Position numbers and translations under genes: made by a program | Shown here: piece by piece, positions 32,595-36,826 of the stretch | How positions within the stretch are numbered: position 1 is the stretch's first letter | Layout of the letters: the number at the start of each line of letters is the position of its first letter | Origin: a phage | Sequence record: NC_105863.1 | Length of the DNA: 41,222 nucleotides | Reading direction: 5' to 3' (one strand) | The notes under the pieces: model-generated | What the model was told of the DNA's origin: nothing | What the model saw: only the letters and a program-made list of their open reading frames with translations | Databases searched by the model: none

Positions 32595-34820
32595 CTATTC
32601 CAAATCTTCCTCAGTAACCACTAGCATTTCATTCGGTTCGTATATTGTCTTCGGCCTTAATCTATCCACTATTCTTTCAGGTATACGATATGTTCTCGGT
32701 ACTACTTCGCCATTAACATCGCAGCCTAGCATTAGTTCGCCATCTTTCAGCATTTTATCAAGATGGGTGTTAGTCACAGAAAAGTCACCGGAACGGGCCA
32801 CTATCTGCTGCTGGGTAAAACCGCGACCTGTATCATCTGACTGTTGCAGGTCTTCCAGTGCTGAAAGTATTGACTCCTTCCTTACTTCATCCCTGCCGCG
32901 GTTAACTTTTTCCTTTACTTTTTGTTTACCTTCGTTAGTTAACCCTTCTTCCCGCTCTTTCTCCTCGTCAGTTTTGAACGGCTCGAAGCCCCACGGCATC
33001 AGAACAAGCGCCTTGTGTGGTTCCGGCAGGTCGAGGTTTACGATTGTGCCGTATTCCTCTGTGCTACCGAGGAACTCCACCGCGCGGTACTCTTTCGCTG
33101 GCGGTGCTTCGCGGAACTGTACCGACTCAAGCACCATTCCAACCGTTTTCTGTTGGGGGCCGTGCTTAAATTTCGAGTGGTATACGTTTATCTGACGGTC
33201 GGTTGCACGTTCGATTGTCAGTTCCACGTCGACACCCGCATACAGCGCCCCGCTGCCACGGGCTTTCTTTCCCCCCTTCGGTGTATGGTGAACAACGCCC
33301 ACCGCGGCTTTGGTTGCGTCGCGTACTTCTTTCAGTATGGCGATAACTTTACCCATGCCGATTGTCGTCGACGAACTGTTCTCGTCGAACTTATCAATCG
33401 TCAGGGCCAGCGTCTGGTTAAGGGTGTCGAATGCGACCATACCAATAGGCTCGCCGTTGGCGGTTTCGCGCATCCTGCGGATTAGCGCGGGAATTTTTTT
33501 ATCACCATGCGCCGTGAGTACCTCACCCATGTCGATGACATGCACATAATCTTTACCTTCCCTGCCATATTTAGCCGCGAGTGCGTCAATACGTGTGCGT
33601 GTAGCTGCGCCACCTTCACCGTCGATATAGAAATGGTGGCAACGCTGGGTGTCTGCCCCCGCAAACCGGTACCCGGCGGCGCTAAGGTACATCACCCCCA
33701 GCGTATAGAATGATTTATATGTGCCGGATTCCCCGACGATGTCCCAGATGCAATCCGATGGCATGTACCCTTCAACGACGAAATCAGCCTTTACCGGTTC
33801 AGGTAACTCGTCATCGTCTTCAAGGTCTTCCAGTGTACAAGTTACAGGCTCCTCGTTCTCTGTGCGGTGCAGTTCTTCAATCTCTTCATCCGGTAAATCA
33901 GGCAGAGCCGCACGAATGCTGTTAATACTGATAGGTTGCTTGTCTACGTTAAGCTCGTCCGGAAGGCCGCACATACGCAGGGCCAAATGTTGTCGGCGGT
34001 TAAGCTCAGTGCAAGCGCCGTTGTTTGTGTGCTGGCACACGAAGCGCACCTCTTTACCGTCAAGCATGATGCTGGTGGAGCCTTTGCCTGTATGCAGATG
34101 TTCATTAGGGCATGGCACTTCATACCCTCGGCCGGAAGATAAAGCGTCAAGGCCCAGCTCGGCTTCGCAGAAATGAGCTATATCTGCGTTAAGCCCGTGC
34201 TCATCGGCGGCAAGTGTCTTAGCCTCGCGTTTACGCAGCCCCATCTCTTCGGCTTTCTTGATGTACCGCTCCGCACGGATAACACGCCCTTCTGTAACCG
34301 TTATCTTAGACTCTTTATGTGGCAGGTAGATGAGGCGGTTGCCGTCTTCCGTGCAGTGGTCGCGCAGCGATTCATCTATTTCTAACTCGGCACAAATAGC
34401 ACGTTGCACCATCCACGCGTCGTTAGAGTTAAACGGAGTGCGAGCCGGTACGAGGACGCGGAAAGCGTAATCACCGTTTTTACACGCGTGCTGATGTGAC
34501 GCCGTTGTGTGCAGAATATTGAAGAACGGTGCGTTCTTGAATTTGCGGGTAAGGTCGCGGTACTGAGTACGGTTGAGATGGTCGAAGTCAAACTTAACCA
34601 CACTGTCTTCCAGAATCGCGTTCTTACGGCGACCGCCAACCGGCGCAATAGCTTTCTGCTTAATCTTGGCCGCGTCGTACTCTTCCTTAGTCCATGACGG
34701 GTCTACGGACAGACGCTTCGATGTATCGCAGACATACTCTACAAACTGCTCCAGTGGCATTTCACGGGCTACCGGGTTTTTATCGAATGTGTTACGCAGC
34801 GTTGCAAAAACAATATTCAT
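32595..34820 (-). CDS. DNA primase / replicative helicase-type protein (N-terminal primase-like region, C-terminal RecA-fold ATPase)
   Basis: 741 aa; Walker A GESGTYKS and Walker B-like MVAFD in C-terminal half; central Cys/His cluster CPNEHLH..CQHTNNGAC. Confidence 0.65.
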   Translation of the reverse strand: MNIVFATLRNTFDKNPVAREMPLEQFVEYVCDTSKRLSVDPSWTKEEYDAAKIKQKAIAPVGGRRKNAILEDSVVKFDFDHLNRTQYRDLTRKFKNAPFFNILHTTASHQHACKNGDYAFRVLVPARTPFNSNDAWMVQRAICAELEIDESLRDHCTEDGNRLIYLPHKESKITVTEGRVIRAERYIKKAEEMGLRKREAKTLAADEHGLNADIAHFCEAELGLDALSSGRGYEVPCPNEHLHTGKGSTSIMLDGKEVRFVCQHTNNGACTELNRRQHLALRMCGLPDELNVDKQPISINSIRAALPDLPDEEIEELHRTENEEPVTCTLEDLEDDDELPEPVKADFVVEGYMPSDCIWDIVGESGTYKSFYTLGVMYLSAAGYRFAGADTQRCHHFYIDGEGGAATRTRIDALAAKYGREGKDYVHVIDMGEVLTAHGDKKIPALIRRMRETANGEPIGMVAFDTLNQTLALTIDKFDENSSSTTIGMGKVIAILKEVRDATKAAVGVVHHTPKGGKKARGSGALYAGVDVELTIERATDRQINVYHSKFKHGPQQKTVGMVLESVQFREAPPAKEYRAVEFLGSTEEYGTIVNLDLPEPHKALVLMPWGFEPFKTDEEKEREEGLTNEGKQKVKEKVNRGRDEVRKESILSALEDLQQSDDTGRGFTQQQIVARSGDFSVTNTHLDKMLKDGELMLGCDVNGEVVPRTYRIPERIVDRLRPKTIYEPNEMLVVTEEDLE

Positions 34821-35013: not shown

Positions 35014-35226
35014 TTATTTATCGCCCGCAAACCACGCGTGCGCAGAATCATAGAAACGACATTTACTTAACACGTCTACTGGCATCTTAATAATGCGTGT
35101 AGGTTCCGACAAATGATTAGGCTTACATATTTCTGCATAGAATCCGCTGTCAGTAATTTCTGACGCAAACTTAAACCAGTATTTAACTTTACCGTTTTCA
35201 AAGTAACAACCCATACGTCCAATCAT
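35014..35226 (-). CDS. hypothetical protein (70 aa)
   Basis: ORF with ATGA overlap on upstream HTH gene stop. Confidence 0.4.
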   Translation of the reverse strand: MIGRMGCYFENGKVKYWFKFASEITDSGFYAEICKPNHLSEPTRIIKMPVDVLSKCRFYDSAHAWFAGDK

Positions 35227-35405
35227 TTCACGTTCTCCTTAATCCATGCTTCAACTTTATTACGGTCAAATGTACCTGGTAAACGGCGACCCATAACCTT
35301 AATACAACAATCAGGGAATTTACCACTGCGCAACCAGTTATTAATTGTCTGACGTGTTACCCCAATACGCTCGGCTACTTCATTCTGTGTCATGTAATGT
35401 TGCAT
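35223..35405 (-). CDS. small helix-turn-helix DNA-binding protein (60 aa)
   Basis: MQHYMTQNEVAERIGVTRQTINNWLRSGKF.. is a classic HTH; ATG 35405 has RBS AGGAGA; ORF track start 35519 would run through the promoter, so the shorter form is preferred. Confidence 0.55.
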   Translation of the reverse strand: MQHYMTQNEVAERIGVTRQTINNWLRSGKFPDCCIKVMGRRLPGTFDRNKVEAWIKENVK

Positions 35406-35436
35406 TTCTATATCTCCTGTTTGTTTGGTGAAGCTG

Positions 35437-35465
35437 AGTATAGGATAGCGGGAATGTAAAAGCAA
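35437..35465 (-). promoter_or_regulatory. sigma70-like promoter for leftward early operon (TTGCTT -17- TATACT)
   Basis: Read on minus strand about 30 nt upstream of HTH gene start. Confidence 0.45.
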
Positions 35466-35502
35466 CCAATCCCTGCAATATTTAATCTTTACAAAAAAGT
35501 TA

Positions 35503-35532
35503 TTGAAAGTTCTTGACACATGTTTGTATAAT
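35503..35532 (+). promoter_or_regulatory. sigma70-like promoter for rightward transcription (TTGAAA -18- TATAAT)
   Basis: Consensus -10 TATAAT at 35527-35532; divergent from 35437-35465. Confidence 0.5.
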
Positions 35533-35559
35533 GGTTTTGGGACTTGTATATATTACGGA

Positions 35560-35591
35560 GTTGACGAACCCTCCCCGAGGGATTCGTCAAC
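35560..35591 (+). promoter_or_regulatory. long imperfect inverted repeat / hairpin in rightward leader (GTTGACGAACCCTC-CCC-GAGGGaTTCGTCAAC)
   Basis: 14-bp stem with one bulge, no T-run; lies in a 350-bp noncoding AT-rich region. Confidence 0.4.
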
Positions 35592-35824
35592 CCCTCCCAG
35601 ACAGCTGAGATGCTTGTTTTAGGGTTTAAGGATAAGTGTATCTAAATCTCATTTAAAGAAGTAACCCACTGAAATATCTACTGTTTCTTAATGTGCCGTA
35701 GATTCGCAACCGTAAAAATGTAACGATTATTGGGCAGGCTTAAGGCCTACCCTTTAGTTACCAAGTAATAAGAATAAAGGCACAACCTTCCCTAAAGAAT
35801 CACAACGGCAACGTAACTAATCTC

Positions 35825-35853
35825 TTGCACACCCCAACATAATAGGATACTAT
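35825..35853 (+). promoter_or_regulatory. sigma70-like promoter (TTGCAC -17- TACTAT), copy of 13686-13722
   Basis: Part of 37-bp exact inverted repeat; about 35 nt upstream of gene 35888. Confidence 0.5.
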
Positions 35854-35887
35854 TCACTTATCGAAACGAGACAGAGGAGTGAGGGTT

Positions 35888-36073
35888 ATGTTTAAACGTG
35901 GTCAGTTGGTTAAATACTCCGACGATAAACACGGCATAATTGAATTAAAATCTGCTTTATTTCCAGGAAAGTACGTAGTTACCGTGCAAAATGTGAGAGG
36001 AGTAAATTCACAAATATACGTAGCGGAGGAGAACTTAAAACTCATCGGCAACAATTTTAAATTTAAAGGGTGA
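35888..36073 (+). CDS. hypothetical early protein (61 aa)
   Basis: ATG 35888 with RBS AGAGGAG (ORF track GTG 35879). Confidence 0.45.
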   Translation: MFKRGQLVKYSDDKHGIIELKSALFPGKYVVTVQNVRGVNSQIYVAEENLKLIGNNFKFKG

Positions 36074-36074
36074 A

Positions 36075-36278
36075 GTGATGGAAGAATTATTTGAAGAACT
36101 GAAACATCATGATTTCGAGGAAATATATTTCGTAGCTGAACGCTACGAGGTGCATCTGGCGGACGGTATAACGGTTATTACATCTACCAGCGAGCGAATG
36201 TTAAATAGCTTACGAGCAATACGAACGGCATCGAATCATGATGCTTGTGCCGACGACGCTGAGGGAGGTTGCCGTTAA
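36075..36278 (+). CDS. hypothetical early protein (67 aa, acidic)
   Basis: Tightly follows previous ORF. Confidence 0.4.
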   Translation: MMEELFEELKHHDFEEIYFVAERYEVHLADGITVITSTSERMLNSLRAIRTASNHDACADDAEGGCR

Positions 36279-36481
36279 TGCGAATCCGTATAACTGACCG
36301 CAGGCTTGTCCGTATAACTGACCGCAGGCTTGTCCGTATAACTGACCGCAGGCTTATAGATTTCGGTATCTCGGTAGGTGATGTTTTTCCGGCGTTCAGC
36401 ATCAACCATTATGGTTTTATGATTGAGTACAAAGGGTCGTTATTGTTCGTGTATCGGGATGAATGTGAGGTTCTGGTATGA
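36269..36481 (+). CDS. hypothetical protein with RITDRRLV x3 repeat (coding status uncertain)
   Basis: TTG-start ORF whose N-terminus is encoded by the tandem DNA repeat; supported only by ATGA coupling to the next ORF. Confidence 0.3.
   Translation: MPLMRIRITDRRLVRITDRRLVRITDRRLIDFGISVGDVFPAFSINHYGFMIEYKGSLLFVYRDECEVLV
36286..36355. repeat. tandem direct repeat, 3 copies of 24 bp (CCGTATAACTGACCGCAGGCTTGT)
   Basis: Copies at 36286-36309, 36310-36333 (identical) and 36334-36355 (22/24); both strands stay open across it. Confidence 0.9.
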
Positions 36482-36633
36482 GAGAAGCATTTGAACGGTG
36501 GGCTGTGGTCGAGGGTCTGCCGGTTAACAAGGGTTCAAAGAAAGAGTACCTGAACGTTAAGACGCGTCTCGCGTGGCGGGCGTGGAAAGCTGGTGTGCAA
36601 TCCTTGATTGAAAGAGGTGTGAGGTATGGGTGA
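36478..36633 (+). CDS. micro-ORF (51 aa)
   Basis: ATG overlapping upstream stop (ATGA); MREAFERWAVVEGLPVNKGSKKEYLNVKTRLAWRAWKAGVQSLIERGVRYG. Confidence 0.3.
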   Translation: MREAFERWAVVEGLPVNKGSKKEYLNVKTRLAWRAWKAGVQSLIERGVRYG

Positions 36634-36826
36634 GTGGATTAAGTGTAGTGAGATGCTGCCGGGTAATGGGTATACGGATAAAGAGTTCCTGGTGTATGAA
36701 ACGTTAAATAACGCAGTTCAGCACGACTATTACATAGTTCCTGATGACGGGAGAAAGCCTTTCTGGAATCACTACGATAAGTACGTGACGCACTGGATGC
36801 CGTTACCCGAGCCGCCAGAAGTGTGA
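36626..36826 (+). CDS. DUF551-like small phage protein
   Basis: 66 aa; N-terminal EWIKCSEMLP and C-terminal THWMPLPEPPE match the DUF551 pattern as I recall it. Confidence 0.45.
   Translation: MGEWIKCSEMLPGNGYTDKEFLVYETLNNAVQHDYYIVPDDGRKPFWNHYDKYVTHWMPLPEPPEV

Follow-up and report, generated by a model that had tools for sequence, protein, structure and literature searches.

The window analysed here, a stretch of 41,222 nucleotides, is the complete genome (~41 kb) of Escherichia phage UTI-CM001, a K1G/K1H-like siphophage (Kagunavirus, Guernseyvirinae). UTI-CM001 is strictly lytic, was isolated from Swiss wastewater and serves as an engineering scaffold that can be rebooted from Gibson-assembled PCR fragments (PMC10359290). 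The locus of interest is a small rightward gene, tightly packed between other small genes, with an array of three tandem 24-nt units at its 5' end (Table 1). A 2-kb query around the array matched 345 phage records, the best being fTaEco01, K1H, K1G and K1ind2/3 with 93-99% identity, and gave no match among 5,426 complete E. coli genomes, on which ground a prophage or bacterial origin of the segment was rejected. The product translated across the repeat matches UMW88020.1 of UTI-CM001 exactly, and the ORF is annotated as a CDS in relatives too. The original prediction started this ORF at a TTG at position 36269; ATG 36278 is the likelier start, given the GGAGG motif 9 nt upstream and the overlap with the upstream ORF, the TAA of which shares one base with the ATG (TAATG). 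The GGAGG motif is kept in relatives, including the distant ones. The TAATG overlap is consistent with translational coupling to the upstream ORF and, with the TGA of the repeat gene (36479-36481) overlapping the next start codon in turn, the packing is, as judged from the arrangement of the reading frames, that usual for a translationally coupled operon of small phage genes. By its agreement with the consensus, the sigma-70-like promoter appears to head this rightward operon.

Table 1. Features of the repeat-bearing locus (positions in the window)
Feature	Position	Strand	Basis or note
Near-consensus sigma-70-like promoter (putative), TTGAAA-18-nt spacer-TATAAT	35503..35532	+	Consensus match, 11/12
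Upstream small ORF, 67 aa	36075..36278	+	CDS annotation in fTaEco01 and UTI89UKE1
Shine-Dalgarno-like GGAGG, 9 nt before ATG 36278	36264..36268	+	Read from sequence
67-codon repeat gene, hypothetical protein UMW88020.1, PHROG 30395 member	36278..36481	+	ATG 36278 to TGA
Three head-to-tail 24-nt units, TCCGTATAACTGACCGCAGGCTT[G/G/A]	36285..36356	+	Tandem Repeats Finder, repeat search, shuffle control
Downstream small ORF, 51 aa, phrog_15836	36478..36633	+	ATG overlaps repeat-gene TGA (ATGA)

Several other features of the region and of the genome deserve mention. Past the promoter, the AT-rich divergent intergenic region contains an inverted repeat with 15-nt arms and an 8-nt loop (35557-35571 and 35580-35594). 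Divergently from the small-gene operon, the minus strand encodes a predicted MerR/excisionase-type helix-turn-helix (HTH) protein (35223-35519; phrog_66, E = 1.6e-11), the counterparts of which are annotated as HTH proteins in relatives and which may be the early regulator. Two genes downstream of the repeat gene lies a gene for a DUF551 protein (36626-36826, plus strand; PF04448, E = 6e-12), which the records of several GenBank relatives wrongly name 'valyl-tRNA synthetase' or 'glycosyl hydrolase'. A segment of ~70 nt that comprises the 3' end of the upstream ORF, the Shine-Dalgarno-like motif and the first seven codons of the repeat gene (36230-36300) is identical at 60-68 of 71 positions in the distant relatives 590B, HSE2 and Snoke, whereas the gene bodies in these phages are only ~72% identical, and many BLAST matches in relatives start abruptly at ~36224; the segment looks like a conserved gene boundary or a mosaic recombination joint. 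Elsewhere in the genome, the sole Rfam match is to the int-alpA RNA (RF02996; 13740-13804, plus strand; 36.9 bits against a gathering score of 35.8), which is unexpected for a strictly lytic siphophage.

The array begins 7 nt past the ATG. When run on the whole window, Tandem Repeats Finder reported it at 36285..36355 with a period of 24, 3.0 copies, 100% matches and a score of 142, by far the strongest tandem array present. A repeat search placed the units at 36285-36308, 36309-36332 and 36333-36356; the third differs from the other two solely in its last base, A in place of G, and the periodicity is perfect over 71 of the 72 nt. The 22-mer core CCGTATAACTGACCGCAGGCTT occurs exactly three times in the window with up to three mismatches allowed, and in none of 100 dinucleotide-preserving shuffles. 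The three tandem 24-bp direct repeats of the original prediction are therefore real, although their third copy, described as matching at 22 of 24 positions, matches at 23 of 24 in the register used there (36286-36357). The array is in frame and encodes RITDRRLV-RITDRRLV-RITDRRLI, so that the peptide RITDRRLV proposed for all three units is correct for units 1 and 2 and wrong for unit 3. Below, arrays are denoted by the last base of each unit, with G yielding Val and A yielding Ile. Both strands indeed stay open across the array, as had been observed, with minus-strand ORFs at 36184..36405 and 36275..36409; these were rejected as coding, the openness being due to the repeat and the constraint being confined to the plus frame.

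The number of units varies among relatives. A GenBank census, based on the match span of a 179-nt query in carriers of close orthologs and verified on fetched sequences, identified three units only in K1G and K1H beside UTI-CM001, two units in seven phages (K1ind2, K1ind3, fTaEco01, fTaEco03, fKuEco01, UTI89UKE1 and Esher4) and a single unit, the commonest state, in ~18. Scanning the unit through IMG/VR and JGI/ENA metagenome contigs, where other 18-mer matches were unrelated chance occurrences, yielded 17 orthologous loci, ten with one unit, six with two and one, K1H itself, with three. Neither the GenBank relatives nor the 17 contig loci contained an array of more than three units. At the protein level, two-unit forms of the type [I,I] are found on 126 contigs and those of the type [V,I] on 93, and they are geographically dispersed (USA, Finland and Switzerland). 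All multi-unit alleles reside on one protein backbone (PAFSIN), which is also that of a one-unit protein (P0016) present on 19 contigs. The closest comparison involves UTI-CM001, K1G and K1ind3, for which a gapped alignment shows no mismatches and no gaps in the 210 nt that precede the array or in the 284 nt that follow it, indels occurring further out. On these 494 nt of identical flanks, the three phages carry the arrays [G,G,A], [A,A,A] and [G,A], respectively. The array is thus the only variable site there, and its copy-number change exceeds the point-substitution rate of the flanks, three different arrays being set in invariant sequence.

The 67-aa product matches PHROG 30395 with E = 1e-38, residues 19-67 aligning to positions 3-51 of the 51-position profile. 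In a collection of 5.8 billion proteins, PHROG 30395-type proteins form a small family confined to this phage group. Family members are 51, 59 or 67 aa long, corresponding exactly to one, two and three units, and we infer that the normal, ancestral form of the gene encodes 51 aa with one unit. The search for deep homologues with phmmer against 1.84 billion representatives recovered Kagunavirus orthologs only, apart from summed weak matches to large repetitive cadherin-like and GW-domain proteins, which we regarded as uninformative; Pfam gave no significant match for the window protein. The distant orthologs in 590B, HSE2 and Snoke keep the N-terminal MRIRITD, followed by an unrelated 11-residue loop and then by the conserved FGVSVGDEF...ECEVL core. 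Among six orthologs (15 pairs, Nei-Gojobori method), dN/dS is 0.10-0.33 in 14 pairs, the remaining pair being saturated at synonymous sites, and the differences within the unit among relatives are synonymous (CGT/CGA, ATC/ATT and ATA/ATC). The constraint therefore acts on the protein rather than on a DNA motif. Across the array it is seen in the plus frame only, and the dN/dS values show that this frame is coding.

The AlphaFold2 model of the 51-aa form, built on the family alignment, has a pLDDT of 95.6 and consists of a strand (residues 2-5), a helix (residues 8-13) and four further strands, a high-confidence prediction of an SH3/FeoA-like small beta-barrel. Foldseek matches to this model include SH3, Hfq, the SH3-like domain of ScaR and the FeoA-like PA4359, with probabilities of 0.8-0.99 but E > 0.1, and an HHpred FeoA note in the fTaEco01 record agrees with this result. 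The Pfam FeoA profile (PF04023; threshold of 23 bits) has no match in the window protein or in P0002, and the 590B ortholog reaches 12 bits (E = 0.23), under the gathering threshold; hence, the SH3/FeoA-like label is limited to the fold. An assignment as AbrB-like or double-psi beta-barrel was dropped in favour of the SH3-like one because the PDB profile search gave only weak, GD-box-like matches to designed double-psi barrels (E ~0.07), Pfam was blank and the AlphaFold2 fold is SH3-like. The unit corresponds to residues 4-11 of the 51-aa form, where strand 1 ends, the chain turns and the helix begins. In the AlphaFold2 model of the 67-aa form, the last unit occupies the native place of strand 1 and the helix start, and residues 1-16 are without secondary structure, with block-mean pLDDT values of 43 (residues 1-10) and 68 (residues 11-20). 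The two extra units are thus modelled as what is probably a flexible, arginine-rich, disordered N-terminal tail of 16 residues. As a separate observation, the relatives EC3-1 (L006), L010 and L011 carry a hydrophobic micro-ORF of 23 codons (V/MNNYPFILI(I/V)SAVYV.HAL.G.V) inserted between the upstream gene and that for the SH3-like protein, with an ATGA overlap, and in the metagenome protein P0008 the micro-ORF is fused in frame to the SH3-like protein.

Taken together, these data make it highly probable that the array arose recently, by an in-frame tandem triplication of eight codons at the start of a small gene that genuinely encodes a protein; to judge from its sequence, it is an ordinary coding variable-number tandem repeat (VNTR) of the slippage type. 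A slippage-prone repeat had been the fallback of the original prediction, and the occurrence of one to three units on flanks that are 100% identical favours it. The starting point would have been a one-unit gene for the 51-aa SH3/FeoA-like beta-barrel, in which the 24-nt segment ATCCGTATAACTGACCGCAGGCTT, with a 2-nt AT microhomology at its borders, would have been duplicated for the first time to give the two-unit allele; so short a microhomology is not diagnostic of the origin of that duplication. An A-to-G substitution in the upstream unit would then have converted [I,I] to [V,I]. Once two identical units were in place, replication misalignment (slippage) or unequal homologous exchange could add or remove whole units, and the reading frame would survive because 24 is a multiple of 3. 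K1G and K1H would have passed from one unit through [I,I] to [I,I,I], and UTI-CM001, in a separate expansion, from [I,I] through [V,I] to [V,V,I], with the first unit copied again. Two parallel A-to-G changes are implausible because the 494 flanking bases carry none, so that spread of the variant by unit duplication, that is, concerted evolution, is the natural explanation. The pattern of the arrays appears as the signature of slippage or unequal exchange, a mechanism deduced from the allele series; the sequence of steps, and the view that the extension is nearly neutral, are likewise inferences. The last unit would retain the native strand 1 and helix role, with the 16-residue extension tolerated by the protein. 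Arrays could also have changed backgrounds through recombination between phages. Because two-unit alleles are common (>200 contigs) and one of them is fixed for the I-to-V change, the extension is stably inherited, and it could have a function.

A stronger version of this last idea, that copy number itself is functional at the protein level and that selection keeps the two- and three-unit tails as an adaptive, contingency-like coding VNTR, strikes us as unlikely. With each unit, the N-terminus of an SH3-like early protein would be extended by an arginine-rich octapeptide (net charge of +2), and the length of the tail might, for example, tune binding to a host target or nucleic acid. It is similarly doubtful that recurrent gain of the octapeptide tunes a host-target interaction, with lineages switching tail length by slippage as a device of rapid evolution in host takeover. 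The abundance and wide dispersal of the two-unit alleles, a three-unit expansion that seems to have arisen twice, the frame-preserving length of the unit and the concentration of all multi-unit alleles on the PAFSIN backbone would fit such selection. However, a single ancestral duplication would confine the multi-unit alleles to one backbone just as well, no structure is predicted for the extra units, one-unit alleles (P0016) persist on the same backbone and no array longer than three units was found.

Less probable still is the reading preferred in the original prediction, namely, that the units are iterons bound by a replication initiator or partition protein; within the coding sequence, they would serve an initiator, such as the 741-aa helicase-primase (32595-34820, minus strand), or another early DNA-binding protein. 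Perfect direct repeats in triplicate ~750 nt from the minimum of the cumulative GC skew and the divergent promoter region, with the AAA_25 helicase-primase and the HTH protein encoded nearby, speak for this reading, and iterons within genes have a precedent, the lambda ori iterons lying inside gene O. The check attached to it was a comparison of copy number across relatives, in which variability was to count against binding sites. Such variability was observed: one unit is the commonest and ancestral state, and one to three are found even on identical flanks. The unit lacks dyad symmetry beyond TATA, and no fragment of it of at least 11 nt recurs elsewhere in the genome on either strand, 9- and 10-mers being at chance level. 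Unit changes in relatives are synonymous, and the distant orthologs swap the second half of the unit for unrelated loop-coding sequence. The identity of the copies, in turn, points to a recent duplication rather than to maintained sites. With a GC content of ~50% in the array and of 40-51% in the array plus the next 100 nt, there is no strongly AT-rich neighbour; the AT-rich block (35100-36100, 33-43% GC) ends ~185 nt upstream. The skew minimum lies at 35-36 kb, where the direction of transcription switches, in an AT-rich region 400-700 nt upstream of the array, and the divergent intergenic region (35503-35594) is, on its sequence features, a better candidate for an operator, attenuator or origin than the array. 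Nothing about the replication proteins of the phage, the AAA_25 helicase-primase and a family A polymerase, specifically leads one to expect iterons of 24 bp. In the region examined, no ParB-like gene was noticed, and we found nothing relevant on origins of replication in the literature on Guernseyvirinae. Thus, as far as the sequences tell, every testable defining feature of iterons fails at the array.

A role in RNA structure or regulation at the translation start was also considered and rejected, with folding no better than that of shuffled sequences (z of +0.5, +1.2 and +1.5 for one, two and three units); Rfam searches found nothing in the array region. Finally, an error of assembly or sequencing in this genome has next to no probability as the source of the repeat: short tandem repeats can be mis-assembled from short reads, but this one, at 72 nt, is shorter than a typical read, its three-unit structure is also present in the independently sequenced K1G and K1H, and two-unit arrays occur in many isolates and metagenome contigs, the agreement among independent genomes and contigs effectively excluding an artefact.

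Accordingly, the appropriate annotation for the locus is a coding VNTR within a PHROG 30395 gene, not an origin or regulatory element. The array offers a convenient strain-typing marker for K1G/K1H-like Kagunaviruses, with one, two or three units and a G or A junction base, which also covers the therapeutic scaffold phage UTI-CM001, and it illustrates, on a small scale and cleanly, the concerted evolution of a phage gene. Should the length of the tail turn out to be functional, the array would become a modest case of a host-takeover protein tuned by repeats. Beyond annotation, its significance is small.

Comparison with known systems places the array most naturally among coding repeats. FeoA and DtxR-type SH3-like domains resemble the predicted small beta-barrel in fold; the repeat gene has no iron-transport context. 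As in lambda and in phage P4, where the ori/crr octamers are bound by the alpha primase-helicase, the direct repeats are situated in or close to a phage's early and replication genes, recalling gene-internal origin iterons. However, the number of known iterons is conserved among relatives, whereas here it varies from one to three; known iterons are usually spaced, whereas these units abut exactly; and known iterons often are internally symmetric and flank an AT-rich unwinding element, neither of which applies here. The likeness to in-frame coding tandem repeats of the VNTR or minisatellite type is closer: the units are perfect, arranged head to tail and a multiple of three in length, copy number differs between otherwise identical genomes, and junction variants spread in concert, in this case from [G,A] to [G,G,A]. 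Compared to typical coding VNTRs, the array is very short, with at most three units, and is located in a tiny globular protein of 51 aa, where what the unit duplicates is not a linker or low-complexity segment but the first beta-strand together with the beginning of the helix.
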